Origin: an uncultured Pseudomonadales bacterium
GTDB taxonomy: Bacteria; Patescibacteriota; Microgenomatia; UBA1400; PJMF01
Assembly (NCBI GenBank): GCA_964570365.1
Contig: CAZMXT010000001.1
Location: 73,440-137,439 of the forward strand
DNA: 64,000 nt
Reading direction: 5' to 3'
Shown here: in pieces, positions 1 to 51,093 of the stretch
Layout of the letters: each line of letters opens with the position of its first letter
Numbering within the stretch: position 1 is the stretch's first letter
Position numbers and translations under genes: made by a program
The notes under the pieces: generated by a model
What the model was told of the DNA's origin: nothing
The model's database searches: none
What the model saw: only the letters and a program-made list of their open reading frames with translations

Positions 1-1394
1 ATTACAGAGGGGGCAAAGGGCATAAACCAATCCCTCCGCTTCATCACATCATTAATCTTCTCTCTGATATGAGGACCGCGAGGGTCAGCAAGAGCACTGC
101 GCTGGCCTAAAGCTCGAGGGCCCCACTCACCTCGTCCTTGAAACCAGCCAATTACCTTTCCAGAAACAATCTCTGTAGCAACCTTAGTCAAAAATGTTTT
201 GCGAGGAAAAGACTTAAAACTAACTTGCTTCTTAAATTTATCAAGTGCAATTTTTATCTCCGCATTACTAAAGCTACGACCAAAATCAGCTCTTTTGAGT
301 TCGGAACGGCGAAGTTGCTGAGAAACTTTTTGGTACCCTAAAAGTGCCGCACCGACCGCAATTCCGCTATCACCAGGGTTAGGATATACCCACAAATCCT
401 TTACTTTACCTTCATTTAGTAACTTCATACTCATCTTCACATTTAGGAAAAGGCCTCCTGCTGCTGAAAAGGTATTTAATTTATACTTTTTTTGTAGATA
501 CTTAAAGAACTTTAAAACTCGTTCTTCGAGAACTTGTTGTGCAGCTGCCGCTACATGGCGGTCACCATATTTTTCGACTAAATCTTTTAAATAACTGAAC
601 GTCTTTGTCTTGCTAAAAAACTCTATGGTCGAGACGCTGTTTACTTCTAACCAACTTGAACGACCCACCCACTTACCATCTATAAAATCTGGAAAGAACT
701 TACGCATTTCTTTAAGACATTTTTCTGGTTCGCCGTACACTGCTAGACCCATCGTCTTACCTTCACCATCATTTAACTTAAAACCTAACCCAACCGTTAC
801 CGCGCCATAATACAGGGCCAATGAAGCATAGATTGGGACTTCTTCGAGTTCTTGAAGTTGATTGTTCTTTCCAAGAAATATTTTGCCGCAGTTCGGCCGA
901 CCATCAGCGTTTGTACCGAAGCCGTCAAGCGCAACCACTAAGCAATGATCATGGGGACCACACCAATATGCAGTTGCAGCATGTGCGTCAGCATGAGAAA
1001 CACAGAGGATTTTAGAGTCATCTTTAACGAAGTTCTTCAAGGTAATGGTCTGTGGAGCCGAATATCTGACTATGGAAAAAGCACGTTGAAAAAACCAAGT
1101 CAAAAAATTCCAAACTCCACAATAGCGAATTCCTTCAAAGTATGCTTTGTAGTAAGCTAGAGAAGTGTACAAAGACATTGGGGAAGAAGTTGTTACAAAG
1201 TAGTCAACATGCTTTAGCTTCCAGTTTGTAAAACGAAAAGCATCCTCCATTGAGAGTACTGGAAATGATAGATCGTGTTTTTTCTTGCTCGCTCGTTCCT
1301 CTGCCTGGGCAAAAAGCAGTTCTCCATCTTCGAGTAGTGCAATTGAATTATCGTGATTATTCGAAAATTGGGACGTTAGCCCTATAATTTTCAT
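1..1394 (-). CDS. O-carbamoyltransferase, NodU/CmcH/TobZ family (partial; C-terminus runs beyond the window start)
   Basis: The minus-strand translation starts MKIIGLTSQFSNNHDNSIALLEDGELLF and contains GWFQGRGEWGPRALGQRSALADPR and RDWFMPFAPS, stretches typical of carbamoyltransferases. The ATG at 1392-1394 overlaps the TGA of the upstream ORF (ATGA). The forward-strand ORFs in the track at 138-1160 are antisense artefacts. Confidence 0.75.
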   Translation of the reverse strand, partial: MKIIGLTSQFSNNHDNSIALLEDGELLFAQAEERASKKKHDLSFPVLSMEDAFRFTNWKLKHVDYFVTTSSPMSLYTSLAYYKAYFEGIRYCGVWNFLTWFFQRAFSIVRYSAPQTITLKNFVKDDSKILCVSHADAHAATAYWCGPHDHCLVVALDGFGTNADGRPNCGKIFLGKNNQLQELEEVPIYASLALYYGAVTVGLGFKLNDGEGKTMGLAVYGEPEKCLKEMRKFFPDFIDGKWVGRSSWLEVNSVSTIEFFSKTKTFSYLKDLVEKYGDRHVAAAAQQVLEERVLKFFKYLQKKYKLNTFSAAGGLFLNVKMSMKLLNEGKVKDLWVYPNPGDSGIAVGAALLGYQKVSQQLRRSELKRADFGRSFSNAEIKIALDKFKKQVSFKSFPRKTFLTKVATEIVSGKVIGWFQGRGEWGPRALGQRSALADPRGPHIREKINDVMKRRDWFMPFAPSV

Positions 1395-3049
1395 AGAGAC
1401 CTTAGTTGGGCAGGGGTAATATATAATTGTTTATTAGAGTAATCAATTCGCAAAAGGTTATACCTTTCAGGACTAAGGGACTGTGCAGCTGCCTTAAGTG
1501 CTTCCAGCTCATAAAAGTATCCGAATCCATATTCGCCATCACTAAAATATCCTTGGCTTGATAAATCCCACATAAATCCTTGACTTAACAAACTTTGTGG
1601 TATTACGCCTTGAGAATAATAGATGACCATTAAGGTGTAACCTACGCCTTGCTGGAAAGGTAATTTTTGGTTAGGAATAATAAAATCTTCTTTCGAAGAA
1701 ACGTAGAAAAAGTTGATTTTTTTACTGCTAATATTTTGAGCCTGAAACTGCTCCACCATTGTACGACGCTGCATTGAGACAACTGTTTTCTCCTTTAAGT
1801 AAGATTGAATCTGGGTGGATTGAAATGTGATAAAAAGCAAGAAGAATATTAGAGTGCCTGCCAAGACCTTTACTGACCTTTTCTTCAACTCAAGTCCTGC
1901 TAGTATAATCGCTATTCCCACTAGTGGGAGATAGACATACCTACTTTCCATATATGCATTCCCTTTTTGAATAATAGTTAGCGGGAGCAAAGCCAAAAAA
2001 TAAAAAAATCCTCCAATAATGACGTTCTGCCACCGCAAATATCCTCTAACTAGTAAAAATACCCCTACAGCGAGCAATCCAAAAGTAAGTATCACAGAAA
2101 GCACTAGACTTAGGCTGAGCTCCACATATGGAGCTGAATATTTGCCATGAAAAAGGAGTGTGTTGATTTTATATCCCCAGCCAAATAGGAAGGGTGCTGG
2201 AATAAATAATTGACTAACTGTTGCAAGTGGAGCAGAAATAATATTTTTAAAAAGGACTTCCAGACCACTATTATTTGCAGTTGATTGTTTAACCATAATT
2301 CCGGACGCTTCAGAACTTAAAAAAAAGTAGTGCAAGTAACGCAGCAGCGTAGTGCAGGTAATTACCAAAAAGAATGAGGTAGTTTTTAAGTTAGAACGCC
2401 AGTTTCCCCCTCTTTGTAGATAGAAAAGAAAGATGTAGAAAAAGCTAAAAAGCGCATTCATTTCTTTTGTTAAGAAAGAAAGATAAAAAAGAAAGATAGA
2501 TAGGATAAGTTGATCTCTCCTATTTGTACTCAGGTAGTAGAGGAAAAAAAGTATTGAGACTAAGAGCAGGCAAGTTGCTAGCGGTACTGAAATAGAGGCA
2601 GCGAACCACGTAACAGCCTGGTGGGAGGTAATATTAATCAGAAAAATAACTACAGCAGCAAAATTAACGTACTTGGCCGAGCGAATTTTTTGAAGAACCA
2701 AGAAAAGAGAAAATCCAGTTAGACCGTGTAGCGTGATAGAAAAAATAGTTAATGGAATTAAGTTAAATCCAAAAGCTAGGTAAAAGAAAGTGTTAAATAT
2801 TTGAGTAAGTGGTCTTCCTTGGGCAAAGACTAGCGCATTCAAAATCCCCGACTCAGCTATTACCCCGAGCTCTTTTCCATATGTAAGTCCTAAGCCCATC
2901 CATTCATCTTGTTCAAAAAAATGAAAAAAAAGACGCCAGTAGGTAAGGAACGCGATACCTACAAAAACAACTAACCATCTTGACCATTCTGGAGTTTGAG
3001 TAAAAAAATTCAATAGGGAATTATTTGTTGGAGGTTTTCTTTTTTTCAT
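1391..3049 (-). CDS. polytopic integral membrane protein, function unknown (candidate GT-C-like glycosyltransferase)
   Basis: A 552-aa ORF, strongly hydrophobic along its whole length with many predicted TM helices. It sits in the glycosylation locus and is translationally coupled (ATGA) to the downstream carbamoyltransferase. Confidence 0.55.
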   Translation of the reverse strand: MKKRKPPTNNSLLNFFTQTPEWSRWLVVFVGIAFLTYWRLFFHFFEQDEWMGLGLTYGKELGVIAESGILNALVFAQGRPLTQIFNTFFYLAFGFNLIPLTIFSITLHGLTGFSLFLVLQKIRSAKYVNFAAVVIFLINITSHQAVTWFAASISVPLATCLLLVSILFFLYYLSTNRRDQLILSIFLFYLSFLTKEMNALFSFFYIFLFYLQRGGNWRSNLKTTSFFLVITCTTLLRYLHYFFLSSEASGIMVKQSTANNSGLEVLFKNIISAPLATVSQLFIPAPFLFGWGYKINTLLFHGKYSAPYVELSLSLVLSVILTFGLLAVGVFLLVRGYLRWQNVIIGGFFYFLALLPLTIIQKGNAYMESRYVYLPLVGIAIILAGLELKKRSVKVLAGTLIFFLLFITFQSTQIQSYLKEKTVVSMQRRTMVEQFQAQNISSKKINFFYVSSKEDFIIPNQKLPFQQGVGYTLMVIYYSQGVIPQSLLSQGFMWDLSSQGYFSDGEYGFGYFYELEALKAAAQSLSPERYNLLRIDYSNKQLYITPAQLRSL

Positions 3050-3082
3050 TCTAATTAATCAATAACTTCTTGAGTGTAACAT

Positions 3083-6000
3083 ATGCAGTTGACCTTTCAA
3101 AAATCTAGCTGTATTGTTATTTTGAAAATAGCATTCACTTATACTTCGGATTTTCACTTAAAGGCAAAAGGTCGTTTGAAGATACTATCCTTTTTTAAAT
3201 TTTTAAAAAGAATACCCAGTTGGGTAACTGAGGTGGTAATTCTTTTTTTTCTCTCATGGACTCCTTTTTTTTGGTTAAAAAGTGATCAAGTAATTTTAGG
3301 TCATGACGCGGGATTTCGCCTAGATATGACCAATTACTTACGTGACCTTTGGTATTCTTGGACCCCCTCACCAGGTTTTGGAGCTGATTGGACTCTTAAC
3401 AAGGGTTTTCTTATAGCACAAACTCCAGAAACTTTTTTTACTTTTGTGACTAATGATGTATCTCTAGGTCAAAGACTTTCATTTGTTTTTTGGTTTTTTA
3501 TGATTGGCTTATCTATGTATATCTTTGTTAAACATTTTTTCCCAAGAAAAGAATTCTTTACTTTCAGAATATTTTCAAGTTTATTTTATATGTACAACTT
3601 TTTCTTGCTGCAAGGCTGGTTTATTACCGAGAGAGGAAAGTTTTCTCTATATGTAGCACTTCCATTAGGACTACTTATCTTATACGAAACATTACTAAAA
3701 AAAATTCCTCCTTTGAAGGGTGCTACTTTATTTGGACTTATTTTCTTTTTTTTCAATGGAGGTGGCTCACCTCCTCTTTACGGAGCAATTTTAGTCGTCT
3801 ACAGTGTGAGTTTTTTCTACCTATCTTTTGTTAATATCTGGCAAAATGGAGCTAAGGGTTTACTCCATTCTTTAAAAACTATTTTTCTTTTTGGAGTAAT
3901 TACCGTACTTTTAAATTCTTATTGGATTATTCCGCAAATCCAGTTAGCAAAAAATCAATACGGAGCTAGACTAGCCGCATCTGGAGGAATTGAAAGCATA
4001 CTTAACTGGGAAAAGACTGTCAGTAAAAATGCAAGTCTTATAAATCTTTTCCGCCTACAGGGCATACCTGATTGGTACGATAGTCCTAACCACACTTATT
4101 CCCGCTTTTTTCTAGAAAATCCCCTCCTTATTGTATTAAGCTTCTTGCCCATTTCACTGATACTTCTTGGTCTTTTTCTTCATCACCGTTTTAGAGTTGA
4201 AGAAAGAAATGATCACTTATTTTTTCTCATTTTGCTTATTTTAATAGTGAGTTGTTTGTTTGCAGCAGGCTCGCACGACCCTTTTGGCTCAATCTACTTG
4301 CTCTTTATTAAGTATATTCCAGGATTTGCTATATTTCGTTCAGCGATATATAAATTTGGCCCAGGTGTTTGGTTCAGCATTATTTTCCTTTCTGGATACT
4401 CTCTCAACTTCTTACTCCTACATCTGAGATCTAGAAAAAAACTTTCCCTTGTAATAACTAGTCTGAGTATTTTCACTTTGTTGGCATATCACTTTCCTTT
4501 TTTTACGCATCAGTTCTTTCAGTTTGATCCACCATTTGGCACCCGCGTCGCGGTCCCAAAGTATGTGATTGAAACTGCCGGATACATGAATAAGAATGCT
4601 TCCTCAGATTCTCGGCTTTTACTATTACCCAAACTTTACCCTTCATTCCCTGTTGATAGTTATAAATGGGGCTTCTGGAGTTTTGACTTGCTTCCTAGAT
4701 TAAGTTTTTCTCACTCTGTTATCGTTAATGAGGCTGGAGCTCCTCCAATTATTGATTCCTTGTACAAAGCTGCTGATCAGCAGAATCTTTTAGTGTTCAA
4801 CCGAATTAGTCAGATGCTAGGAGTCAATTATGTGCTTTGGAGGTCTGACATTCTCTATCATGATAAAAAAACCCAAGCGAAAGAATTTTCAGATAATCTC
4901 TTCTCTCCAATGAACGCTAATCACCCCGAATCTGTAAAAGATTTTAATGAGTGGCAGCTGTACCCTTTAACTACCTCTTCCAAACTTTTTTCAACCCATC
5001 AGAGAGCCACTTTAACCCAAATCTCTGGTTCTGGATTTGCGAAAGTTCTTGAATCTGAGCCAGTCATGTCCCCGGGCAAGCTCTACTTGGATCAGGCTGA
5101 TTTAGAAGAAACTGCTTTAAGTAGAGAGCTCAGCCTTGATTCAGCTTATATTATTGAAGCACATTGTCTCAACTGTCATTACCTGACTGATCCCAACTTT
5201 CCCTTATTTGGTGTAAGTTTCCCATTTGTAAGATTCCTTCCAAACTCGCTTATATATCCGTATGTTATTTTTAAAGAAAACGAAGCCTTAGCAAATGCAA
5301 GCAATTCTCCAGTCAAAAAGATTGATACTGGTCTACTTTTTGCTGACAAAAGAATTAATGAAGTTTCGTTTCTTCTGCAAGAGCATCAGGACGCTAGATT
5401 AGCGGAGAGCCTTCAGGCAACTATCAACAGATATAAGTCTTTAATAGCAACGATACAGACTGAACTACCTGAGCTCTCAGGACTCACCCAGCGAGAAAAC
5501 CAAACTAAACTACTTTCTCATTTGTATGCACACCAGAAGTTACTGTATCAATCTTCCGGTGTTTCTAGTGAATTAAGTGAGTTTGTTCAAGCCACGCTCC
5601 GGAGCATCGAAGAAGAAGATAGTATTATTCAAAGGACAGGGTTTTTATCTTCCGCAGAAGCAGTGAATGTAAAGAAATTTCTGATTTCAGTTCCTGTATC
5701 TGGGACATACGAAGTACATTTAGTTAATACAGATGTCAAAAAAATAAAATCACTCTGGCAAGGAAAAGAAGTTGATCTTAGTAATGAGTTATCTCTTGAA
5801 GTAGGCGAGTATCAGCTAGAGATCATTTACCCAAAAGCCGAAAATCTCACTCTTTCTCGCCCAGTGGAAATTTCCGGAAAACTACAAGAAAAGAATAGTG
5901 AAAGAGTTGGGTTTAACATTCAAGACTTTGATCATGCCAGCGAGTACTTCATAAGCTTTGAGTACTTCAGCCAACAAGAACAATCCACCTCTTTTTCAAT

Positions 6001-6625
6001 CTTACAAGATAATGACCCACAACCAGAAAAGTACAAGCTGCAGCCTAAAACCAATGTCACACTAAAAAGCAATGGTCAATGGAACACCTATACACATTTC
6101 TTTGTACCCAATGAGTATGCAAAAGAAGTGAACCTCTTTATTACCTCCTTTAACTCTGAAGGAACAAATCCTGAAATAGAAATTCGGAATTTTGAGGTAA
6201 AGAAAATTGCTACACTAGATGTATTTTTAGTAAAGCAAGCTTCTCCAATCACCTCGAAGAATCTCAATTCAGAAAAAATTCCTATCAGTTTCACAACTTT
6301 GAATCCAACCAAACACTTGATACATCTCAACACTGCCCCAGAATCTTTCTTTCTACACTTTAATCAAAGTTACAATCCTGGATGGGCACTTTATCCTGCT
6401 GGAACCCCTTGGTGGCAGACACTCTGGAAAAAATCAATTGCGGCAGATGCTCACTTTATAGGGAACACCTATGCTAATACTTGGTACCTGAAAAATGCTC
6501 AACATCAAGACTTAATTGTTTTTTACCGACCTCAGGCCGTCTTTTACGCGGCTGCCTTAATTTCAACCATTATGATCATCTTTAGCACTTCCTACTTGAT
6601 TCTAATCACAAGAAAAAGAAAATGA
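3083..6625 (+). CDS. giant membrane protein: N-terminal multi-TM domain of about 480 aa plus a large C-terminal non-membrane domain of about 700 aa
   Basis: An 1180-aa ORF. The N-terminal half is hydrophobic, with GHDAGFRLDMTNYLRDLWYSWTPSPGFG in the first loop. The C-terminal half is hydrophilic and has one final TM segment (AAALISTIMIIFSTSYLILI). An alternative TTG start at 3176, preceded by AAAGG, would widen the 33-bp divergent gap. Confidence 0.65.
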   Translation: MQLTFQKSSCIVILKIAFTYTSDFHLKAKGRLKILSFFKFLKRIPSWVTEVVILFFLSWTPFFWLKSDQVILGHDAGFRLDMTNYLRDLWYSWTPSPGFGADWTLNKGFLIAQTPETFFTFVTNDVSLGQRLSFVFWFFMIGLSMYIFVKHFFPRKEFFTFRIFSSLFYMYNFFLLQGWFITERGKFSLYVALPLGLLILYETLLKKIPPLKGATLFGLIFFFFNGGGSPPLYGAILVVYSVSFFYLSFVNIWQNGAKGLLHSLKTIFLFGVITVLLNSYWIIPQIQLAKNQYGARLAASGGIESILNWEKTVSKNASLINLFRLQGIPDWYDSPNHTYSRFFLENPLLIVLSFLPISLILLGLFLHHRFRVEERNDHLFFLILLILIVSCLFAAGSHDPFGSIYLLFIKYIPGFAIFRSAIYKFGPGVWFSIIFLSGYSLNFLLLHLRSRKKLSLVITSLSIFTLLAYHFPFFTHQFFQFDPPFGTRVAVPKYVIETAGYMNKNASSDSRLLLLPKLYPSFPVDSYKWGFWSFDLLPRLSFSHSVIVNEAGAPPIIDSLYKAADQQNLLVFNRISQMLGVNYVLWRSDILYHDKKTQAKEFSDNLFSPMNANHPESVKDFNEWQLYPLTTSSKLFSTHQRATLTQISGSGFAKVLESEPVMSPGKLYLDQADLEETALSRELSLDSAYIIEAHCLNCHYLTDPNFPLFGVSFPFVRFLPNSLIYPYVIFKENEALANASNSPVKKIDTGLLFADKRINEVSFLLQEHQDARLAESLQATINRYKSLIATIQTELPELSGLTQRENQTKLLSHLYAHQKLLYQSSGVSSELSEFVQATLRSIEEEDSIIQRTGFLSSAEAVNVKKFLISVPVSGTYEVHLVNTDVKKIKSLWQGKEVDLSNELSLEVGEYQLEIIYPKAENLTLSRPVEISGKLQEKNSERVGFNIQDFDHASEYFISFEYFSQQEQSTSFSILQDNDPQPEKYKLQPKTNVTLKSNGQWNTYTHFFVPNEYAKEVNLFITSFNSEGTNPEIEIRNFEVKKIATLDVFLVKQASPITSKNLNSEKIPISFTTLNPTKHLIHLNTAPESFFLHFNQSYNPGWALYPAGTPWWQTLWKKSIAADAHFIGNTYANTWYLKNAQHQDLIVFYRPQAVFYAAALISTIMIIFSTSYLILITRKRK

Positions 6626-6978
6626 AGCGTCTTAACCTTCAGTTAATTAGGTTTATCCATAATAATCAGGAGCAAATTATTGTACTGATAGCGATATACA
6701 GTGTCATGAATTTTTTCTCTTCATTACCTTACCTCAACTTGTTTTTTACGCCTTGGACCACAATTCTTTTTGAAGGAATAGTTGCCACGTTGCTTTTTGG
6801 AAAAAGAGTTCCTTTTATTTTCGCTTTTATTTTATTGGGATTTTCCCTGTATGCAACTGTTTTTTCCTTTTATAGCTCTGCAGAAGATGCCGGAGTCTTT
6901 ATCTATATTTTTTTAACTCTTGGCTTTTTGATTCAGGTTGTAGGCTATTTACGCTCACTCCCTCACAGATCTAAATGA
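6622..6978 (+). CDS. small membrane protein (118 aa), hypothetical
   Basis: An ATGA overlap couples it to the upstream giant ORF. It has 3-4 predicted TM helices and no recognisable motif. Confidence 0.4.
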   Translation: MKRLNLQLIRFIHNNQEQIIVLIAIYSVMNFFSSLPYLNLFFTPWTTILFEGIVATLLFGKRVPFIFAFILLGFSLYATVFSFYSSAEDAGVFIYIFLTLGFLIQVVGYLRSLPHRSK

Positions 6979-6990
6979 TATGATAAAAAA

Positions 6991-8550
6991 ATGAAGAAAT
7001 GGTACTTTTTACTCTCACTGGGAATTATCTTACTCGCCTTTATCTTTCGCTTTCAACCACTCAAAGTACCCTTTTGGGTAGATGAGTTTAGTACCGCTTA
7101 CCAGGCTAATCTATTGCTCAAGTTTGGACCTTCGATTATTAGCAATCCCAATTATTACTTTGAACATCACAATGTAACTACACATGTTTTAGTGGCACTC
7201 TTTTTTCAGTTTTTTGGTCAAAGCGAGTTTGCGGCACGCTTCCCACTGATGATCATTGGCTCATTTGTTCCCCTGCTTATATTTTGGCTCGGAAAGAAGG
7301 TTTTTGACCCCCTCACTGGTATTACAGCCAGCGTTTTATCTATTTTTTCTTACTTTATGATTACTTGGTCCCGACAAGCAAGAGGATACGTTATTCAGCA
7401 GTTACTAGTTCTTTTACTTTTTCTGACATACTTCAGCATTTTAGAATCAAAAAGAAATCGCCCTTTCCTACTCTTTTTGTTAGGAATAATTATTCTGTTA
7501 GGAACGTTAACCCACATCATGTTTATGATTGCGTTCGGGACTATGATTCTGCACTTCTGCATATTTCATTTCTCAGAACTTAAAAAGTTTCTTAAGCAGC
7601 CATTTTTTTATCTGTGCATCGGCATATTTTTCTCGATCATTTGGTACGTTGGAATACTTGGCCAAGTAGGTGTTCAAGTAGCGACTATTGCAAGTGGACA
7701 GCTCTCAAATAACCTTTGGTATTATCACTCCTTTTTATGGCGTGAGTACTCCTTAATTACTTTTCTAGGCTTAATTGGACTAGGGCTTGCACTCATAACA
7801 AAAAAAAGATTTGCCTATTTGATTAGTCTCTACTTCTTTTTGCAGTTCATATTCTTGTGTTTTTTCTTTGGACCCTATGTTTCGCGTTACCTACTGCCAC
7901 TCTTCCCATTTTTATTACTAGGCGTTGCGTACTCGCTGACCTACTTTACCAATGCTCTTTTTAAAACCCAGCAGAAGTGGAAGGTACCCCAGCAGTTACA
8001 AAAAGCCCTACCGTTGATACTCGCCCTGCTGATCATTGCAAATGGAGATAAATTTACCCTTAAACCTAAAAGTTATTACTCAGTGAATCATGACTTCCGA
8101 GAAATTGCTGTGATCGACTACGATCAAGTCTATGACCTGATTAAAAAGAAAGGTGAGTTGGATAAAGGCCAGACTGCGGTTGTTGATACTTGGGGAGATC
8201 GTCTAGTTTGGTACTTGGGCACAGAGTTTGAAGGCTCGTACTTCTTTCGCTGGATTGATGGACAGGGATTAATGAAACAAACCTCATTTAGCTTTAACAC
8301 TCAGGGAGAAAAAGTATTGGGTAACCGAAATCAAGCTAAGTTTATGGGTGAGTTAGCCGATCTTCAACTGGCCATGAAAAAATATCCTAAAGGCTTCATT
8401 TGGATAGATGATTCTTCCCTTCCCAAAGAAGTTCTTGATTTTGCTGAAGCCAACTTTCACAAGGAGTTAGTCTTAGATCACTACACTTTAGATGATAATC
8501 CATACTCTATCTGGCCAGGGACACTTTACAGTTGGGGTATTAGTCTATGA
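6991..8550 (+). CDS. GT-C fold glycosyltransferase, PMT/ArnT-like (GT39/GT83-like)
   Basis: A 519-aa polytopic protein. The first extracytoplasmic loop reads PFWVDEFSTAYQA, with a DE motif after TM1 as in PMT/ArnT enzymes. The membrane domain is long and followed by a hydrophilic C-terminal domain. Confidence 0.55.
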   Translation: MKKWYFLLSLGIILLAFIFRFQPLKVPFWVDEFSTAYQANLLLKFGPSIISNPNYYFEHHNVTTHVLVALFFQFFGQSEFAARFPLMIIGSFVPLLIFWLGKKVFDPLTGITASVLSIFSYFMITWSRQARGYVIQQLLVLLLFLTYFSILESKRNRPFLLFLLGIIILLGTLTHIMFMIAFGTMILHFCIFHFSELKKFLKQPFFYLCIGIFFSIIWYVGILGQVGVQVATIASGQLSNNLWYYHSFLWREYSLITFLGLIGLGLALITKKRFAYLISLYFFLQFIFLCFFFGPYVSRYLLPLFPFLLLGVAYSLTYFTNALFKTQQKWKVPQQLQKALPLILALLIIANGDKFTLKPKSYYSVNHDFREIAVIDYDQVYDLIKKKGELDKGQTAVVDTWGDRLVWYLGTEFEGSYFFRWIDGQGLMKQTSFSFNTQGEKVLGNRNQAKFMGELADLQLAMKKYPKGFIWIDDSSLPKEVLDFAEANFHKELVLDHYTLDDNPYSIWPGTLYSWGISL

Positions 8551-9746: not shown

Positions 9747-9754
9747 ACGCCTCT

Positions 9755-42850: not shown

Positions 42851-42861
42851 AAATTGCGAAT

Positions 42862-43824: not shown

Positions 43825-44795
43825 AAAAAGCGTTTATAACTGGGATAACCGGCCAAGATGGTTCGTACCTAGCTGAATCACTCTTAGAAAAGGGCTATCA
43901 AGTGTATGGCTTAAATCGCCGGACAAGCACCCAAAATTTTGAACGGATTCAATCAATTATTCACAACCCAAACCTGCAGTTGGTTTCTGGTGACTTACTC
44001 GATCAGCATTCCCTGACTGTCGCCTTGAAGGATATTCAACCTGATGAAGTGTACAACTTGGCTGCTCAGTCATTTGTTAAAACGAGTTGGGACCAACCAG
44101 TTCTGACTGGTGAGTTCACTGCTCTGGGGGTGACGCGAATGCTTGAAGCCGTGCGTTTTGCTTGCCCACAAGCTCGTTTCTACCAAGCTAGTTCTTCCGA
44201 GATGTTTGGTAAAGTTCAGGAGGTACCTCAAACCGAAGACACGCCTTTCTACCCTCGCTCGCCTTACGGCGTTGCGAAGGCATACGGACACTGGATTACA
44301 GTCAACTACCGCGAATCTTTTGATCTCTTTGCGTGCTCGGGCCTACTCTTTAATCATGAGTCTCCTCGCCGTGGCTTAGAGTTCGTAACTCGCAAAATTG
44401 CCAATGCCGTAGCTCGAGTGAAGTTAGGAAAACAACAGCATGTAGAACTGGGCAATATGGAAGCCAAGCGTGACTGGGGCTATGCCAAAGACTATGTTGA
44501 AGCCATGTGGTTAATGCTTCAACAAGATAAGCCTGAAGACTATGTCATTGCTACCGGAGAAACTCATTCTGTACAAGAATTTTTAGAGCTGTCATGTCAA
44601 GTGGCTGGGATTCAAGATTGGCAATCTATTTATAAACATAACCCTAGCTATGACCGACCAGCAGAAGTAGATCTCCTGATCGGAAACCCTTCAAAAGCCA
44701 AGCAAAAATTAGGTTGGAAACCCACCATTACCTTCTCACAACTAGTTGAGTTAATGGTTTTAGCTGAGCTTAAAATAGAAAGTGCTGCTCAATGA
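43821..44795 (+). CDS. gmd: GDP-mannose 4,6-dehydratase
   Basis: It has [36 protein letters not shown]...YNLAAQSFV...[21 protein letters not shown]...NHESPRRG, the canonical Gmd. Confidence 0.9.
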
Positions 44796-45964
44796 AGAAG
44801 GCCTTTGTCATCATTCCCACCTACAATGAGCGTGAGAACATCGCCAAAGTAATCCCTTTGCTACTAGAAGTGTTTAGTAAAGTAGCTGATTGGGACATGA
44901 ATATTTTGGTGGTAGATGATAATTCTCCAGATAGAACTTCTGAAGTGGTTCAAGAACTACAAAAAAAATCCAAAAATATCTTCTTACTCTTAAACCCTCA
45001 CAAGTCGGGTCTGGGCGGAGCCTACTTAAAAGCTATGGCCAAGGCTTTTGATGAACTCAATGCCGACGTGGTTTTTGAGTTTGATGCAGATCTATCTCAT
45101 GATCCAACCAAAATTCCCAATTTCCTTAAAAAAATTGATCAGGGGTATGACATGGTACTGGGTTCTCGCTATATTTCTGGTGGTGGCATACCAGAAAACT
45201 GGGGACTCCATCGAAAGCTTTTAAGCGTCATTGGAAACTTGAGTATTATGTTAGTCCTGACAGACTTCCGAATCAGAGACTGGACCGGTGGCTACCGCGC
45301 TATCACCCGCAAAGTCTATGAAGCAGTTCATCCCGAGCTGCACAGTGAGCGATTCACCGGCTACACTTTTCAGATTGGCTTTTTACACAAGGCAGTTAAA
45401 AAAGGATTTAGCATTACCGAAGTACCTTTTAAGTTTGTAGATCGAGAGGTGGGTGAATCCAAGCTTGGGATGGAGTATATTAAAAATACGCTGTTATACA
45501 TTTTTCGCGTTCGCACTAAAGAAATCCTAACTAATCGAATTTTTAAGTTTATCGTGACTGGTAGCGTGGGAGCTCTTGTTCAGCTCTTATCCCTGCAGTT
45601 CTGGCGCAAATCATTCCCATATGAAGCTGCGTATTTTATCTCCTTAGAGACTGCTATTCTCTCTAACTTTATCTTAAGTAACTTCTGGACCTTTGCTGAC
45701 CGGAAGCCCAAACTTAGTCAGTACCCTAGTAAATTCGCCCAGTTTAACTTTGCATCAGCTGGATCGATCGTTGTCCAATTAATTATTGCGACAGCTGGTA
45801 AAAATCTGATTGGTTTGCATAGTCTCCTTACTGTACCGTTCATTAACTTAGAGATTGATACTGGTCTGATTTATGCAGTGATTGGGATTCTGGTCGGCAT
45901 GTCCTGGAACTTCTTCGCCTATAGTCGTTTTATTTGGAAAAAGCCACCAACTAAGGGGTCTTAG
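44792..45964 (+). CDS. polyprenyl-phosphate sugar synthase (Ppm1/DPM1-like GT2) fused to a C-terminal GtrA-like membrane domain
   Basis: The N-terminus [12 protein letters not shown]...VVDDNSPD...[10 protein letters not shown]...GSRYI matches DPM1-like enzymes. The C-terminus [15 protein letters not shown]...NFWTFADRK is a GtrA-family 4-TM domain. Confidence 0.8.
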
Positions 45965-45981
45965 TCTAGAGTTAACCTTAT

Positions 45982-47523
45982 ATGCTCGGTTTTCCCACTC
46001 TTTCTTCCATAAAACAGCGGATCAAAAAAATGAGTGTGATTGAGTGGATTTTAGTGGTGTTGTTGCTCGGGGGAGGCTTTTTACGTTTGTGGAACTTTCG
46101 CAATACTTTGGAGTTTCTCGGTGATCAAGGTCGTGACGTAATCGTCGCCAGTCGTATCTTTAGAGACCATGACCTTGTTTTGATTGGACCGGTCACCAGT
46201 ACAGGAGACATGTATCTGGGTCCCCTGTACTACTACTTCATGGTTCCATTTCTGTTTCTTAGTTTCCCCAATCCCATTGGACCAGCCTACGCAGTTGCAG
46301 CCCTTTCTATTCTGACTATCTTCCTGATGTACCAGCTAGGGAAGGAAATCGTCGGCCAAAAAGCGGCCATACTTGGGGCATTCTTTTTTGCGTTTTCGAG
46401 TGTCGCGGTCAGGTTTGCCCGCTTTAGTTGGAACCCTAATCCTGCGCCTTTACTCTCAATCATTTTTATCTGGGCATTGTGTAGAGCGCGCCTGAAAAGC
46501 CATTGGTACTTTGTACTGGCTGCTGCCTGCATTGCCATCTTAATCCAACTTCACTACGTAGCTTTATTGACCGTGCCAATGGCAGGTCTGGTGTGGCTAG
46601 CAGAGGCATTTAAACTGCGTCAGAAAGCAAGTATGGCGAAAAGATTCCTTGCTGCCACTCTAGTCTCACTGCTCCTGTTTGTGGCTTCATTGGCACCTTT
46701 AATTGCCTTTGACATTCGACACGATTACTTGAACTTTAACTCTTTAAAGTCCTTTATTGCTGACAGCCAGGACCCGCTGGAAGCCCAATCTATCAGCGAA
46801 AAGATTGCTACCACCCTCAAAGAGACACATGGCAGAAGTTTGCACATCTTCTTTGAAGTCTCCATTGGTAAACAAAGAACCCTAAATACTGTACTACTCA
46901 TCGGTGTCTTAGCAGCTCTAGTCATCATGTTAACTAAAAAGAAGAATGAGTGGAGAGATGGCCTCAGGTTACTTTTTCTTATCTACGTCGTGAGTGTTTT
47001 GGGTTTGTCTTTCTATCGCGGTTCTGTCTTTGACCACTATATTTCCTTCTTATTTCCCGCCACTTTCCTCATCTTTGGCAGTGTCCTAACCTGGATTAGT
47101 CAACATAAACTTGGAAAGCTGCTTGCAATCATTTTGATTGGAATTTTCCTTGGGTGGAATATTCCGCGCTACCCTTTGCGCACTCTGGGCTGGACAGTAG
47201 ATGAAATGCAGCAAACCAGCCAGACAGTGCTAGATCGAGTGAAACCAGGAGAAAAATATAACGTAATTTTACTTTCAGAATCAAAGGATATTTACGGTCA
47301 GAATTATCAGTACTTTCTACATGCTTCTGACAAACCGCCAGTACGACTTGAACAACTAGGAGAGGCCAGTAAATTATTTATAATTGATGAGCAACGACTG
47401 CCGATTGATGTAACCCAAATGCCAATTTATGAAATTGTCGTATTTCCCAATAAGAAGCCGACTGAAGTGTATACTATACAAGACGGTCCCCGTATTACAG
47501 TTCTGAAGAAAGAAGATGACTAA
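45982..47523 (+). CDS. polytopic membrane protein, GT-C candidate (GRD-motif family, paralog of 11292)
   Basis: See 11292; the two share the GDQGRD...LIGPVTS block. It is 513 aa with a hydrophilic C-terminal domain of about 150 aa. Confidence 0.55.
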   Translation: MLGFPTLSSIKQRIKKMSVIEWILVVLLLGGGFLRLWNFRNTLEFLGDQGRDVIVASRIFRDHDLVLIGPVTSTGDMYLGPLYYYFMVPFLFLSFPNPIGPAYAVAALSILTIFLMYQLGKEIVGQKAAILGAFFFAFSSVAVRFARFSWNPNPAPLLSIIFIWALCRARLKSHWYFVLAAACIAILIQLHYVALLTVPMAGLVWLAEAFKLRQKASMAKRFLAATLVSLLLFVASLAPLIAFDIRHDYLNFNSLKSFIADSQDPLEAQSISEKIATTLKETHGRSLHIFFEVSIGKQRTLNTVLLIGVLAALVIMLTKKKNEWRDGLRLLFLIYVVSVLGLSFYRGSVFDHYISFLFPATFLIFGSVLTWISQHKLGKLLAIILIGIFLGWNIPRYPLRTLGWTVDEMQQTSQTVLDRVKPGEKYNVILLSESKDIYGQNYQYFLHASDKPPVRLEQLGEASKLFIIDEQRLPIDVTQMPIYEIVVFPNKKPTEVYTIQDGPRITVLKKEDD

Positions 47524-47532
47524 TTCTTTTGT

Positions 47533-48309
47533 ATGGCTAACTATCGCCTTCACCTCTCAATTGTAATTCCTTCTTATAATGAAGCCAAAAATATTCATCG
47601 AGGAGTTCTTACATCTCTGGCGGAACATTTGTCAAAACTAGAAGGCTCATGGGAAGTTATTTTTAGTGACGATGGCTCAAACGATGAAACAGTTCCCTTA
47701 ATTCGCGAGTTTATTCAAAAGTATTCCAAGCAATTTCCTGACCAGCTTTCCATCTTAGAGAACATTCACGCTGGCAAGGGACCAACCGTCCAAGCTGGAA
47801 TGTTAAAGGCTCAAGGAAAGTATCGTCTTTTTACCGACTTTGACCAATCTACACCCCTAAATGAAGTCAAGAAGTTACTCAAGCATGCTCAGGAAAATTA
47901 CCCAGTAGTGATTGGTTCTCGAGAGATTGAAGGCGCCCATCGAGACCGCGAACCCCTACATCGTCACTTAATGGGACGGGGCTTCAACTTGCTCGTCCAG
48001 ATATTAGCCATACCCGGCATCTATGACACCCAGTGTGGCTTTAAACTTTTCAGCGCAGAAGCTACTGAGCAACTTTTTAGTAAGTTGTATGTGTACGGCA
48101 AACGATCTGCTCGTCAAGATGCTTTCACTGGTGCTTTTGACGTCGAGGCCCTTTACCTAGCAAAAAAATATGGCTTCAAAATTAAAGAAGTCCCTATTCA
48201 GTGGGAGCACAATGAAACCGATCGAGTTAGTCCTGTGAGAGACTCAGTCAGGATGCTCCGAGATATCTTCAGAATCAGGATTGCAGATCTAAATGGAAAG
48301 TATACATAA
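47533..48309 (+). CDS. GT2 polyprenyl-phosphate glycosyltransferase (DPM1/GtrB-like)
   Basis: It has LSIVIPSYNEAKNI...VIFSDDGSNDET...FTDFDQSTP...QCGFKLFS. The DxD and QxGFK arrangement is typical of Dol-P/undecaprenyl-P hexose synthases. Confidence 0.75.
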   Translation: MANYRLHLSIVIPSYNEAKNIHRGVLTSLAEHLSKLEGSWEVIFSDDGSNDETVPLIREFIQKYSKQFPDQLSILENIHAGKGPTVQAGMLKAQGKYRLFTDFDQSTPLNEVKKLLKHAQENYPVVIGSREIEGAHRDREPLHRHLMGRGFNLLVQILAIPGIYDTQCGFKLFSAEATEQLFSKLYVYGKRSARQDAFTGAFDVEALYLAKKYGFKIKEVPIQWEHNETDRVSPVRDSVRMLRDIFRIRIADLNGKYT

Positions 48310-48311
48310 AG

Positions 48312-49532
48312 ATGCGCAGCTCTGCCTTTCTACTTGCCTGTAGTTTTTACTTTATACTCCTTACTTTTTACGCCGTTGCTTCTTTTGCGCTAACCGATCC
48401 AAATTTGGTGCTGACGAGCTGGCCACCCTTCTGGAACTTCCAACAGTGGATGTGGCAAACTTTCTTTCTCAATCGCCAACTTTTAGCTAGCACCTTTGGC
48501 GCTTTATTCATCGGCATGTTTGCTTCCTACTTATGCGTTGTACGAGCAGTTCAGCAACAAAGTCCCAAGCAAATTTTCTTGATCAGCTTGGTATTCGCTT
48601 TTCCATTACTCCTTTCCTATAACGCTTTATCGCACGACGTTTTCAATTATATTTTTAATGCCAAGATGGCTGTAATCTATCACGCCAACCCACATCAGCA
48701 CGTCGCCCTTGATTTTGCTCAAGATACCTGGACACGTTTCATGCATAACACACACACACCCGCACCGTATGGGTATGGCTGGACTCTATTTTCGCTCATA
48801 CCATTTCTGCTAGGAGTGGGTAAATTTACTTTCACTTGGCTTCTTTTCCGACTTACTAGCGTACTTAGCTTAGCTGTGCTTTTCTTCTCGCTCCAGCAAT
48901 TTCTAAAACAGGACACAAAGTCAGGAAAAAAATTTGCACTTCTTTTTTTTAATCCTTTGCTTTTAATCGAGGTCGTTAGCAACTCCCACAATGACCTCTG
49001 GATGATTGCGCCAGCTATCCTCGGGTTTAGTCTCGTTTTGAGATTAAAAAACAAACTATTTAATACACTTTTCGACCAGATCCTTATTTCCGCCGGACTG
49101 CTTCTCTTTTCTATCTCAGTCAAGTTAGCCACAGTGACTTTACTCCCATTTTGGGCTATCCTTGTCGCAGTTCGGGCGGTTCCTATGAACAACTGGGTTG
49201 GGCGCCCTCAGGACTTCTTAAAAAGGAACCTTCCACTGCTCTGTTCGCTCTGTCTATTCTTACTGCTCTTAACCCCTAGATCTCAACAATTCCATCCTTG
49301 GTACTTGGTTTGGATTTTGGCTTGGCTACCCCTGATTAAACAAAGATTTTGGACGTATGGGGTAGTGATTTTATCCGCCAGCTCTTTACTTCGTTATTTA
49401 CCCTGGATCTGGGCAGGAGGCTTTTCCCCTCTGATTATTCAGCAACAAAAAATGATCACTTGGATCCCACTACTGGTCTTTTCCGTAAGCTGGCTAACTC
49501 TGAGATTCATCAAACCCCGGCTTCAGCTATAA
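48312..49532 (+). CDS. polytopic membrane protein, hypothetical (possible GT-C)
   Basis: A 406-aa protein, hydrophobic throughout, with loop motif LSHDVFNYIFNAKMAVIYHANPH. It is coupled to the upstream DPM1-like gene by a 2-bp gap. Confidence 0.5.
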   Translation: MRSSAFLLACSFYFILLTFYAVASFALTDPNLVLTSWPPFWNFQQWMWQTFFLNRQLLASTFGALFIGMFASYLCVVRAVQQQSPKQIFLISLVFAFPLLLSYNALSHDVFNYIFNAKMAVIYHANPHQHVALDFAQDTWTRFMHNTHTPAPYGYGWTLFSLIPFLLGVGKFTFTWLLFRLTSVLSLAVLFFSLQQFLKQDTKSGKKFALLFFNPLLLIEVVSNSHNDLWMIAPAILGFSLVLRLKNKLFNTLFDQILISAGLLLFSISVKLATVTLLPFWAILVAVRAVPMNNWVGRPQDFLKRNLPLLCSLCLFLLLLTPRSQQFHPWYLVWILAWLPLIKQRFWTYGVVILSASSLLRYLPWIWAGGFSPLIIQQQKMITWIPLLVFSVSWLTLRFIKPRLQL

Positions 49533-49539
49533 TCAAATA

Positions 49540-51093
49540 GTGAAAACTCGTTACCTCTACCTCGGAATCATTTTAACTTACCTGCTTTCTCACTTATGGA
49601 ATCTGAGTGTATTTCCAGTTTTTTCTGATGAAGCTATCTATATTCGCTGGTCGCAATTGATACTAGACGACTGGAAACAGTACTTATTTTTTGCCATGAA
49701 TGACGGCAAAACACCATTATTTATTTGGCTACTTACTCCCTTACAGTTGTTTTTTAGCAATCAATTGGTAGCCGGCAGAATTTTGTCTGTAGCAGTTGGG
49801 CTTGCTCAAGTTCTCGTCATGGGCCAGCTAGTGAAGCAACTTGGTGGGCGACGGCAGACTCAATTTCTGGCCATGCTCTTTTCTACTCTGCTACCATTTT
49901 GGTTTTTTTCTCACCGCGTTGCTTTGATGGACGGTTTATTGACTCTCTTTCTTTCCTTAGCATTTTGGTCGGGGCTGAGGTTGGTTCAAGGGTCACAGAA
50001 AAATCTGCGGCACGCTGCCCCACTAATTACCTTGACTGGCATCTTTACTGGCTTAGCAGTTTGGAGCAAGCTCCCAGCCATTTTCTTTGTCGGTGCATTA
50101 CCACTATTGAGCTCACTGCCTGCCCAGCTAAGTCGGGAGGAAAGGGTCCGTAGATTCTTGTACTTAGGAGTGGCAGCAGGAATCGGTATTTTTATGTTGT
50201 TGCTACTGCGAGTTAGTCCCGCTTTTGGTCAACTGTTCAGTCGTAGTCAAGACTTTACCTACTCTCTAAGTGAAATCATGGTTGAAGGTAAATGGACCCA
50301 GACCTTGCCCAGCTTCCCTACTTACTTTGCATACTTTGGTCAGTATCTCACCTGGCCGGTAGTAGTCTTAAGTTTGGCTGGACTTTTTATGGATACAACC
50401 AGGAGGAAAGTAGCCATATTACTGCTATTTGCTGTAGCCTTCTGTCTGCCCATTACCTTGCTTGGAAAAGTCGTGTACCCTCGCTACTTATTGCCTGGAG
50501 CTATTTTCTTTACCTTGGCCAGCGTACTGACACTCCAAGCAATGCACGATCAAATATTTGTCCTAAAAAAAGCAAAGTCTATGCTTTATCAAGTGATGAT
50601 TGCATTGCTGTTTGCAGCTATTCTGGGAAATATTTTTACTGCTTCTGCCAGCTTTACTGCAGCCTTTACTTTTGCTCCCAATGCAACCCCGTTTGTCTCC
50701 GCTGACCGTCAACAGTACTTGGAGGAATGGTCATCAGGACACGGTATTTCCGAAGTAGCAGCAATGATTAAAGAGGCAGCCAAGACAAGAAAAATTGCAG
50801 TGGCCACAGAAGGCAGATTCGGCACTTTGCCTGACGGCCTACTGCTTTTCTTTCATCGTACGAATACCGAAAACATTTATATTGAAGGCACTGGTCAGTA
50901 CCCAGTCAAGACCTTGCCTGAATTCTTTGTCCAACGAGCTAAATTAGCCAACCAATCATGGTTAATAGTCAACTCCCATCGGATGGAGCTTCCCCTAGAC
51001 GAGTCCAAGTTAATTCGAGAATTTTGCCGACCCAACAACGCGCCCTGTCTTCAGGTCTGGGATGTAACGGATGAGGTGAAAAAGGCCCCTTAG
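49540..51093 (+). CDS. GT-C glycosyltransferase, PMT/ArnT-like
   Basis: Loop 1 reads VFPVFSDEAIYIRWSQLILDDW...DGKTPLFIW, a DE motif in the correct position. It is 517 aa with a C-terminal soluble domain. Confidence 0.65.
   Translation: MKTRYLYLGIILTYLLSHLWNLSVFPVFSDEAIYIRWSQLILDDWKQYLFFAMNDGKTPLFIWLLTPLQLFFSNQLVAGRILSVAVGLAQVLVMGQLVKQLGGRRQTQFLAMLFSTLLPFWFFSHRVALMDGLLTLFLSLAFWSGLRLVQGSQKNLRHAAPLITLTGIFTGLAVWSKLPAIFFVGALPLLSSLPAQLSREERVRRFLYLGVAAGIGIFMLLLLRVSPAFGQLFSRSQDFTYSLSEIMVEGKWTQTLPSFPTYFAYFGQYLTWPVVVLSLAGLFMDTTRRKVAILLLFAVAFCLPITLLGKVVYPRYLLPGAIFFTLASVLTLQAMHDQIFVLKKAKSMLYQVMIALLFAAILGNIFTASASFTAAFTFAPNATPFVSADRQQYLEEWSSGHGISEVAAMIKEAAKTRKIAVATEGRFGTLPDGLLLFFHRTNTENIYIEGTGQYPVKTLPEFFVQRAKLANQSWLIVNSHRMELPLDESKLIREFCRPNNAPCLQVWDVTDEVKKAP

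Follow-up and report, generated by a model that had tools for sequence, protein, structure and literature searches.

A conserved GT-C-rich locus of at least 50 kb in a Patescibacteria genome and its predicted role in the extracytoplasmic assembly of a surface glycan

What would a bacterium of the Patescibacteria, with a genome of ~1.1-1.4 Mb, build with a whole series of large membrane glycosyltransferases encoded side by side? The question is raised by a locus of at least 50 kb lying in a stretch of 64,000 nucleotides (the window; contig CAZMXT010000001.1, positions 73,440 to 137,439), whose interval 1391-51093 is nearly all coding according to the listing of open reading frames (ORFs). A sequence-only reading of this DNA had noted at least 16 polytopic proteins resembling GT-C glycosyltransferases and had proposed a multi-step extracytoplasmic assembly line for a glycan. 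We count exactly 16 such proteins, the flippases excluded, and an assembly line of this kind remains the best reading, with donors and acceptor that we infer from the accompanying genes. As its main product we favour, with moderate confidence, a peptidoglycan-linked heteropolysaccharide extended extracytoplasmically by the GT-C enzymes of a modular and conserved cell-envelope locus.

Hydropathy indicates 18 polytopic proteins in the interval 1391-51093, two of which are Wzx-type flippases. The 16 others range from 402 to 1180 amino acids (aa) and, with 8,925 aa in total, take up 54% of the interval. Each of them (named hereafter by the first coordinate of its gene) has a short, mostly basic N-terminus followed by a first transmembrane (TM) helix, TM1, a first loop of 39-73 aa and 7-11 predicted TM helices, the counts coming from a crude Kyte-Doolittle prediction and not from a dedicated topology predictor. 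Short overlaps of a few bases between neighbouring genes are frequent and suggest operon-like blocks. By phmmer, nine of the 16 fall into three families, A (18865, 20462, 23466 and 25125), B (14868, 32270 and 35399) and C (11292 and 45982), leaving seven singletons; the earlier division into at least three families plus singletons is therefore upheld. The acidic motifs of the first loop follow the same lines. A DE pair stands after TM1 in 1391, 6991, 18865, 20462, 25125 and 49540, the six proteins of the earlier count, which rises to seven with the EE pair of 23466. As had also been noted, GQFP is present in all three members of family B (with HD/FDG upstream of it) and GRD in both members of family C (as D..GRD). 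Elsewhere the first loop carries GHD in 3083 and EYPP..D in 22235, and for 13667 and 48312 only a candidate Asp (SHDVFNY) can be named. In the family alignments the invariant acidic or loop-1 positions are D48, H74/D75, E56/D72, D31 and E40/D56.

Are these proteins really GT-C enzymes? Sequence and fold comparisons link every one of the 16 to the GT-C glycosyltransferase superfamily, and none is transporter-like. Six of them score above the gathering threshold of a Pfam GT-C model, namely PMT_2 (6991 and 18865), PMT (49540), PTPS_related (32270 and 35399) and Mannosyl_trans2/PIG-V (13667). Two more give sub-threshold GT-C matches, 45982 to PMT_2 and 48312 to the MptA model TIGR03459. The other eight have no direct Pfam GT-C match (a Pfam search at E-values up to 5 gave nothing useful for the eight unannotated proteins) and are tied through paralogs, family members or fold: 20462, 23466, 25125, 14868 and 11292 by paralogy in phmmer, 1391 and 3083 by the Pfam content of their wider families (PMT_2 and PF11847, respectively), and 22235 by its own fold. 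In the extended alignment of family A, 5 of 13 members match PMT_2. Family B aligns with the PMT_2-like family A at a probability of 90% in hhalign, and this is the one support in our data for the place of PTPS_related in the Pfam GT-C clan. The five proteins left unclassified by the earlier reading can thus all be assigned. Searches of the PDB with the single sequences of 1391, 22235 and 3083 found nothing meaningful, and profile-versus-PDB searches with five alignments (A1, A3, A4, A5 and A6) gave no GT-C match by sequence; comparison of folds alone succeeded. Structure prediction was run on two of the 16 proteins, 3083 and 22235, picked as the least classifiable, and both have a GT-C fold.

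These results bear directly on the possibility that most of the polytopic proteins are transporters, Wzy-, WaaL- or SEDS-type polymerases or ligases, or paralogs without activity. Ten of them lack an above-threshold GT-C match to a profile model, the profiles of families A and B find no PDB sequence, and one of the 16 could fill the role of Wzy, which was not identified. However, none of the 16 matched a transporter, Wzy or O-antigen-ligase family in the Pfam and NCBIfam scans, the two proteins hardest to classify gave clear GT-C folds, and the acidic residues of loop 1 are kept in every family examined. We regard this explanation as very improbable; the earlier reading, which a majority of transporters or unrelated membrane proteins would have refuted, is upheld.

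Family A comprises 18865 (18865-20478, minus strand; 537 aa, RDEA), which matches PMT_2 at 29.4 bits against a cut-off of 26.1, and three proteins recognised by phmmer, 20462 (20462-22177, minus; 571 aa, WDEA; 1e-66 to 23466), 23466 (23466-25118, minus; 550 aa, WEEV) and 25125 (25125-26855, minus). The listed TTG start of the last gene, at 26855, probably lies too far upstream, and its true start is likely to be the ATG at 26777. There the stop of the upstream glycosyltransferase family 2 (GT2) gene (26774-27697, minus; Glycos_transf_2 and Glyco_tranf_2_3), which would be translationally coupled to this GT-C, shares an ATGA overlap with it, and in two relatives the GT2 and the GT-C are fused into one ORF of 821-829 aa (13022-15487 in L085 and 13022-15511 in L086; L numbers designate related contigs). 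The fusion indicates a functional coupling of a cytoplasmic GT2 with an extracytoplasmic GT-C. Family B is PTPS_related-like and contains 14868 (14868-16565, minus; 565 aa), found by phmmer with 35399 and 32270 at 1e-29 to 1e-31, 32270 (32270-33994, plus; 574 aa; PTPS_related, 28.6 bits against 26.4) and 35399 (35399-37096, minus; 565 aa; PTPS_related, 2e-14). Family C joins 11292 (11292-12740, plus; 482 aa) to 45982 (45982-47523, plus; 513 aa) with a phmmer E-value of 1e-10; the latter, which has orthologues in 8 relatives, matches PMT_2 just below the cut-off (2.3e-5, 25.1 bits against 26.1).

Among the singletons, 6991 (6991-8550, plus; 519 aa, VDEF) belongs to the PMT_2 family (1.3e-9, 38.9 bits against 26.1) and 49540 (49540-51093, plus; 517 aa, SDEA) to the PMT family (37.4 bits against 22.7). 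The protein 1391 (1391-3049, minus; 552 aa, with QDEW after TM1) is a divergent PMT_2-like enzyme without a direct Pfam match. It has four close homologues in a word-indexed search and 9,631 relatives in a full HMMER profile scan; of 43 relatives sampled, 16 match PMT_2, and the QDEW motif has an invariant D48. Three of the same 43 (alignment A3) carry F5/8 type C (discoidin, galactose-binding) domains, that is, lectin modules fused to a GT-C. Two compact singletons recall enzymes of lipid-anchored glycans: 13667 (13667-14875, minus; 402 aa) is PIG-V/Mannosyl_trans2-like (1.6e-7, 31.5 bits against 22.4, with a weak PMT_2 match), and 48312 (48312-49532, plus; 406 aa) is MptA/GT87-like, with a TIGR03459 match of 3.1e-9 that is far below the equivalog cut-off and with SHDVFNY and HNDLW invariant among its orthologues.

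Two singletons remain, both of them modelled. The first, 3083 (3083-6625, plus; 1180 aa), is built of an N-terminal GT-C domain, alpha/beta and helical domains, beta-sandwiches that resemble carbohydrate-binding modules (CBMs) of the CBM4/CBM22 type in the structure model, and one C-terminal TM helix. On its own it does not match the PF11847 model, which is carried by ~15 of the 120 listed homologues (32-38% identical). We describe it as AftD-like and not as an AftD orthologue because it ends in a single TM helix (residues 1149-1179) with no multi-TM bundle (TM12-16), whereas AftD has a bundle of five (10.1101/2019.12.22.885152). The CBMs of AftD have been interpreted as binding a complex glycan acceptor, and the survey in the same study placed the AftD family in Actinobacteria (10.1101/2019.12.22.885152). 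By analogy, the CBM-like domains of 3083, together with the F5/8 type C domains on relatives of 1391, argue for a complex glycan acceptor here. The stop of the AftD-like gene is overlapped by a gene for a small membrane protein of 118 aa (6622-6978, plus) without a Pfam match, which is a called gene in L089; a 120-aa gene follows the AftD-like homologue in the distant homologous context of L088 (13341-13703). This small protein may be a partner subunit of the AftD-like enzyme. The second modelled protein, 22235 (22235-23485, plus; 416 aa), is a compact GT-C with an ALG3/PIG-M/PimE-like fold. As to subclasses, PimE, ALG6, ArnT and PglB have all been placed in GT-C_A (PMC12041525), and we claim none for the proteins of the locus. 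The family of 22235 has no Pfam model: 106 of its 107 members are without any domain match, and it has been seen so far in Patescibacteria alone, on contigs of 1.08-1.41 Mb.

To what would such enzymes add sugars? The genes between them agree with the earlier inventory and comprise seven GT2 and two family 4 (GT4) enzymes, two Wzx flippases, an LCP (LytR-CpsA-Psr) ligase, RmlB, RmlC and RmlD, a UDP-glucose 6-dehydrogenase-type enzyme (Ugd), a GDP-mannose 4,6-dehydratase (GMD) and two further short-chain dehydrogenases/reductases (SDRs), as recognised by Pfam and NCBIfam. The ligase, of a kind that attaches glycopolymers to peptidoglycan, is encoded at 37120-38190 (plus), has an N-terminal TM anchor at 15-33 and scores well above both of its models (LytR_cpsA_psr, 2.6e-28, 99.5 bits against 24.6; TIGR00350, 86.9 bits against 62.3). 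Next to it, RmlB, RmlC and RmlD (38387-40829, plus) would catalyse steps 2-4 of dTDP-rhamnose synthesis (GDP_Man_Dehyd/Epimerase; dTDP_sugar_isom, 7e-18; RmlD_sub_bind, 7e-50). The two Wzx-type flippases lie at 8547-9746 (plus; Polysacc_synt, 4e-15, and Polysacc_synt_3) and 33922-35442 (minus; Polysacc_synt_3, 8e-47). The family B enzyme 35399 is the most conserved of all the GT-C proteins, and in relatives it always adjoins LCP and Wzx. It is because of this conserved core of LCP, RmlBCD and Wzx, and of the AftD-like enzyme with its CBM-like domains, that a wall polysaccharide is favoured.

Sugar donors of two kinds can be predicted. Nucleotide sugars would be supplied, beside dTDP-rhamnose, by Ugd (41558-42850, plus; three UDPG_MGDP_dh domains; TIGR03026, 417 bits against 190), by GMD (43806-44795, plus; TIGR01472, 433.5 bits against an equivalog cut-off of 415), by a GalE-like SDR epimerase (12737-13657, minus; Epimerase, 1e-61; TIGR01179, 210 bits against a cut-off of 262) and by an SDR dehydratase, epimerase or reductase (42862-43824, plus), which Pfam recognises and to which NCBIfam gives generic names only; for that reason we withdrew a "UXS-like" label for it. 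Polyprenyl-phosphate monosaccharides are the predicted products of two further enzymes, and here the earlier reading, which had named two such synthases, is supported by homology. The protein at 44792-45964 (plus) combines a GT2 domain with a C-terminal GtrA_DPMS_TM domain (5e-16) and matches the dolichol-phosphate mannose synthase (DPMS) of Pyrococcus furiosus (5MLZ) over nearly its full length (residues 3-361, 1.9e-42), and ArnC at ~1e-14. The 258-aa GT2 at 47533-48309 (plus), a catalytic domain alone, has its best PDB matches in DPMS, ArnC and GtrB (~1e-10), with NCBIfam matches to PgfS and ArnC below their cut-offs, and is a candidate second synthase. The one indirect support for the predicted use of polyprenyl-phosphate-linked donors by the GT-C enzymes, on the extracytoplasmic face, is that synthases of the DPMS/GtrB type are encoded alongside them.

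The same neighbourhood could be read otherwise, as serving mainly the O-glycosylation of pilins, S-layer or other surface proteins, in which PMT/PMT_2-type GT-C enzymes would glycosylate Ser/Thr of secreted proteins from polyprenyl-phosphate donors and further GT-C enzymes extend the chain. Indeed, 49540 scores above the PMT cut-off and adjoins the DPMS-like synthase much as in the actinobacterial Ppm1/Pmt pair (PMC5882110); seven proteins carry the PMT-type DE/EE motif; and pilin glycosylation is suspected, though unexplored, in the Candidate Phyla Radiation (CPR) (PMC11623550). Yet the best conserved genes of the locus (LCP, RmlBCD, Wzx and the PTPS_related GT-C) point to a peptidoglycan-linked polymer, the CBM-like domains of the AftD-like protein suit glycan acceptors, no candidate gene for a glycoprotein substrate is found in the window, and wall polymers are commonly modified by PMT_2 enzymes (PMC8035078, Table 2). 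A role mainly in protein O-glycosylation therefore seems to us distinctly unlikely.

The soluble GT2 and GT4 enzymes, one of which has two GT2 domains, have NCBIfam names that are generic and sub-threshold, and no equivalog-level NCBIfam name is available for any of them. Apart from the GT2 genes at 26774 and 47533, they comprise the 511-aa protein with two GT2 domains (9755-11290, plus; Glycos_transf_2 in two stretches, 3e-32; generic NCBIfam names only), the GT2 enzymes at 17635-18429 (minus; 264 aa; Glycos_transf_2, 7e-19), 28799-29680 (minus; Glycos_transf_2, 4e-15), 29688-30692 (minus; Glyco_tranf_2_3, 3e-17) and 30725-31666 (minus; Glycos_transf_2, 7e-20), and the GT4 enzymes at 16572-17660 (minus; Glycos_transf_1, 1e-24) and 27705-28802 (minus; Glycos_transf_1, 2e-20). 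The one at 29688 shows a weak similarity to the rhamnosyltransferase subfamily (TIGR01556, 2.6e-14, below the cut-off), and the GT4 at 16572 a sub-threshold similarity to glycolipid-forming GT4 enzymes (MshA, IagA/BgsA and GlcN-PG synthase). Two other genes of this region encode a NUDIX hydrolase of 142 aa (18429-18854, minus; NUDIX, 1e-20) and a conserved 202-aa protein with one TM helix (31663-32271, minus), which has no Pfam match and has an orthologue in L084.

Another alternative is a membrane-anchored lipoglycan (lipomannan- or lipoarabinomannan-like, or a glycosylated lipoteichoic acid) which the GT4 enzymes would start on a glycolipid in the cytoplasm and the GT-C enzymes extend outside. 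The similarities of the GT4 at 16572 speak for it; three compact GT-C proteins resemble PimE/ALG3, MptA and PIG-V, and their characterised relatives work on glycans with a lipid anchor; fatty-acyl-processing enzymes (LuxC, LuxE, an AMP-ligase and an Fe-alcohol dehydrogenase, Fe-ADH) are encoded in the left flank; and the AftD-like enzyme parallels the assembly of lipoarabinomannan (LAM) as well as of arabinogalactan. Against this, the LCP ligase is part of the conserved core, LtaS, PimA and inositol-related genes were not recognised, and every NCBIfam match of the GT4 enzymes is far below its cut-off. We consider a lipoglycan as the main product unlikely, if somewhat less so than protein O-glycosylation.

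How far the locus behaves as a unit was judged from its conservation. Its TrmD tRNA methyltransferase (40826-41506, minus; tRNA_m1G_MT, 2e-58) serves as a housekeeping landmark outside the pathway and is 60-66% identical to its closest relatives, metagenome-assembled genomes (MAGs) of Patescibacteria (CPR) that include Candidatus Pacebacteria, of the phylum Minisyncoccota according to NCBI. Synteny is kept around it in about eight Patescibacteria genomes: on one side of TrmD lie, in order, the response regulator, PMT, MptA-like, GT2, family C GT-C, DPMS-like, GMD, SDR and Ugd genes, and on its other side RmlD(C)B, LCP, the family B GT-C, Wzx and GT2 genes. Gene-for-gene collinearity extends over the block 12737-33994 in two relatives, an NCBI MAG (L084) and a JGI contig of 1.17 Mb (L085), even though the orthologues of 22235 in these two are just 55-57% identical. 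The module from Ugd to PMT with its response regulator (41558-51776) is cleanly missing in six genomes (L006, L009, L011, L012, L021 and L022), where TrmD directly adjoins homologues of the window genes 56214-63881; with this presence or absence next to TrmD, the module behaves as a cassette. The left part, 1391-12740, looks variable, given that its GC content is lower and that homologues of 1391 and 3083 stand among different glycan genes in other MAGs (L087 and L088). At 2-8 kb (2001-8000, the region of the AftD-like and PMT_2 genes) the GC content falls to 0.35-0.39; elsewhere in the locus it is 0.42-0.45, and in the housekeeping flank 0.47-0.48. Such a drop would fit a variable region of serotype-like character that is exchanged horizontally.

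It is here that a composite explanation finds its evidence, in which several independent glycan systems, and not one assembly line, would be co-located, among them the conserved core for a wall polymer, a mobile module for mannosylation and a serotype-like module that varies between strains. The cassette that is beside TrmD in some relatives and missing in others, the differing contexts of the 1391 and 3083 homologues, the low GC at 2-8 kb and the two Wzx flippases all speak for it. On the other hand, the central 20 kb, with 9 or 10 GT-C genes, is collinear across genomes in spite of the divergence of the orthologues, and the composite explanation is compatible with a peptidoglycan-linked polymer as main product, which it refines rather than excludes. 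We take it as a serious possibility that nevertheless falls short of being probable.

Two observations concern trmD and its relatives. The gene stands alone, on the opposite strand, between rmlD and ugd and not in the usual rpsP-rimM-trmD-rplS context, an odd placement that is kept in related Patescibacteria. Several of the related MAGs (L005, L009-L012, L016, L022 and others) are titled "uncultured Pseudomonadales", "Bdellovibrionales" or "Gammaproteobacteria", although they share TrmD identity and detailed synteny with Patescibacteria loci, and these taxonomic labels look wrong.

What is directly established, then, is the protein family or fold of the components, their operon-like packing and the conservation of their order. 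From these we infer the glycan product, its donors and acceptor, the order of the steps, the activity of all the GT-C paralogs and their joint action on a single product, in the following scheme. Cytoplasmic GT2 and GT4 enzymes would make lipid-linked oligo- or polysaccharide precursors from dTDP-rhamnose and from sugars derived from UDP-GlcA and GDP-mannose, and the precursors would cross the membrane via the two Wzx flippases. In parallel, the DPMS-like and the GtrB/ArnC-like GT2 would load single sugars onto polyprenyl phosphate. Up to 16 GT-C enzymes on the outer side of the membrane, among them the AftD-like enzyme with its carbohydrate-binding-type domains, would take sugars from these lipid-monophosphate donors, lengthening and branching the polymer. 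Finally, the LCP ligase would join the finished polymer to peptidoglycan.

By analogy, this layout is that of two established schemes joined together, a lipid-linked glycan handled by Wzx and LCP, and the route of GT-A synthase, flippase and GT-C, which is described on wall polymers with polyprenyl-monophosphate donors and extracytoplasmic addition (PMC8035078). In the known three-component systems (GtrA/GtrB/Gtr*, CsbB/GtcA/YfhO, GacI/J/K/L and Csd pairs; PMC8035078) a GT-A polyprenyl-phosphate synthase is likewise accompanied by a flippase (a GtrA-type domain or Wzx) and an adjacent PMT_2 or YfhO-like GT-C, as in our module 44792-51093. However, those systems have one GT-C per synthase and add one side-chain sugar, whereas 16 GT-C enzymes stand here beside two recognisable synthases. 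That GT-C enzymes dominate the locus suggests the building of a backbone, beyond decoration, and makes the assembly of mycobacterial arabinogalactan and LAM the closest functional analogy.

With the mycobacterial and corynebacterial systems for arabinogalactan, lipomannan and LAM (Emb, AftA-D, PimE, MptA-C and Lcp1) the locus shares many GT-C enzymes in series on the outer face, polyprenyl-monophosphate donors (here by inference), an AftD-type enzyme with carbohydrate-binding modules, compact MptA- and PimE-like GT-C enzymes, cytoplasmic GT-A/GT-B enzymes for the early steps and an LCP protein to link the polymer to peptidoglycan. It differs in belonging to the Patescibacteria, with their genomes of ~1.1-1.4 Mb, and in having in one locus the genes that are dispersed there; no genes for decaprenyl-phosphate arabinose (UbiA/DprE) or inositol were seen here, the implied sugars are rhamnose, mannose or a 6-deoxyhexose, and a uronic acid, and identity to the mycobacterial enzymes is ~10%. 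The rhamnose-rich loci of streptococci and lactococci (rgp/gac/cwps) are alike in having rml genes and a number of GT2 and GT4 enzymes, a flippase of the Wzx type, GT-C transferases for side chains and LCP attachment to peptidoglycan, in a monoderm-type envelope. Unlike them, our locus has far more GT-C genes, in an unrelated organism, and no RgpCD-type exporter, GacO/TagO primer or RmlA was found in the window. The actinobacterial Ppm1/Pmt system of O-mannosylation also has a PMT-family GT-C with a DE motif next to a DPMS-type synthase; the pair here is instead set among wall-polymer genes, and its synthase has an archaeal DPMS-like domain of four TM helices and not the Ppm1/Ppm2 arrangement. 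Lastly, of the Wzx/Wzy-dependent pathway only Wzx was found in the window (two copies), without primer, Wzy or chain-length regulator.

Several points weigh against a single peptidoglycan-linked polymer built in this way. No priming phosphoglycosyltransferase (WecA/TagO or WbaP), RmlA, Wzy or chain-length regulator was recognised in the window, where Bac_transf, Glycos_transf_4, Wzy_C and Wzz have no match anywhere, although such genes could lie elsewhere in the genome. An ABC exporter was not found in the window either. As for RmlA, the window has no nucleotidyltransferase; the variable region of the relative L087 contains an NTP_transferase gene. Two recognisable polyprenyl-phosphate sugar synthases stand against 16 GT-C enzymes; 10 of the 16 GT-C assignments come from sub-threshold or indirect evidence, and the profiles of families A and B are without any PDB sequence match. 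In Actinobacteria, moreover, the acceptors of PMT-family and MptA-like enzymes are proteins or lipids, so that more than one product may come from the locus. On balance, and by analogy, it is probable that the organism assembles the greater part of a complex sugar polymer of its surface outside the cytoplasm, much as mycobacteria do their cell wall.

The locus also runs past both of the ends, 1391 and 51093, that the earlier reading had given it. Beyond the left end come a carbamoyltransferase, a methyltransferase, a GT2 and a GT4; the window cuts the C-terminal end of the carbamoyltransferase (3-1394, minus; Carbam_trans_N, 1e-40, and Carbam_trans_C), which is complete in L089 and L090 (585 aa in L089). 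In these sibling assemblies the locus goes on for at least 10 kb left of the window: 11656-21659 of both, to the left of window position 1, encodes the full carbamoyltransferase, the methyltransferase, the GT2, the GT4 and a glyoxalase-like protein, and next to them LuxC (acyl-CoA reductase), LuxE (acyl-protein synthetase), an Fe-ADH and an AMP-dependent ligase. This set could provide a fatty aldehyde or alcohol substituent or anchor.

On the right, the edge of the Ugd-to-PMT module is marked by an OmpR-type response regulator (51090-51776, minus; Response_reg and Trans_reg_C), which holds the same position in L008 and L013, and by tRNA-Gln (51852-51922). No histidine kinase gene was recognised anywhere in the window by the Pfam scans, and this tRNA was the sole match of the Rfam scan, which detected no regulatory RNA. 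A second NUDIX hydrolase lies beside the locus (52073-52666, plus; Pfam); like the one at 18429-18854, it might act on nucleotide sugars. It is followed by genes for a GFO/IDH/MocA oxidoreductase, a DegT-type aminotransferase, an AAA_28 protein and a formyltransferase-domain protein (52663-56227, plus; Pfam, with generic NCBIfam names only), which resemble a pathway for a formylated or acylated amino sugar and probably feed the same locus. An Arn pathway (4-amino-4-deoxy-L-arabinose, L-Ara4N), assembled from Ugd, the SDR at 42862, the DegT aminotransferase, the formyltransferase, a GT2 and a PMT_2 enzyme, was considered and set aside for now as unsupported: the SDR, aminotransferase and formyltransferase have generic matches only, and the ArnA and ArnB models score far below their cut-offs.

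How new is such a locus? The sequence-only reading had not recognised a described pathway. In the literature searched (open-access papers and preprints) we found no description of such a locus in CPR/Patescibacteria, and to that extent it was right; the logic, however, is that of the known GT-A/flippase/GT-C route and of the mycobacterial systems. Each component belongs to a known enzyme class, and what is new is scale, arrangement and host lineage, with no new mechanism: GT-C genes so numerous and so dense in a single locus of a CPR host with a reduced genome, AftD-like and ALG3/PimE-like GT-C enzymes in a phylum far from Actinobacteria and eukaryotes, and GT-C families that have no Pfam model. 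If the contigs of 1.08-1.41 Mb are near-complete, the locus would represent ~4-5% of the genome. In its strongest form, which we advance only tentatively and think rather unlikely as a whole, the proposal is that a Pacebacteria-like CPR lineage makes its main wall glycopolymer largely extracytoplasmically, in the manner of mycobacteria, by ~16 successive GT-C steps, with an AftD-like enzyme and one or more GT-C families seen so far in Patescibacteria alone, at a cost of ~4-5% of a genome of ~1.2 Mb.

A large part of bacterial diversity belongs to the CPR/Patescibacteria, which live attached to other microbes and whose surface chemistry is essentially unknown; glycosylation in Saccharibacteria has been called "unexplored" (PMC11623550). 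That genomes of ~1.1-1.4 Mb, shorn of most biosynthesis, keep a conserved GT-C-dominated locus of at least 50 kb suggests that an elaborate surface glycan is central to the biology of these organisms. The locus offers concrete gene targets for finding this glycan and, should the strongest form of our proposal be true, the polymer could provide the surface through which these cells attach to their host cells.

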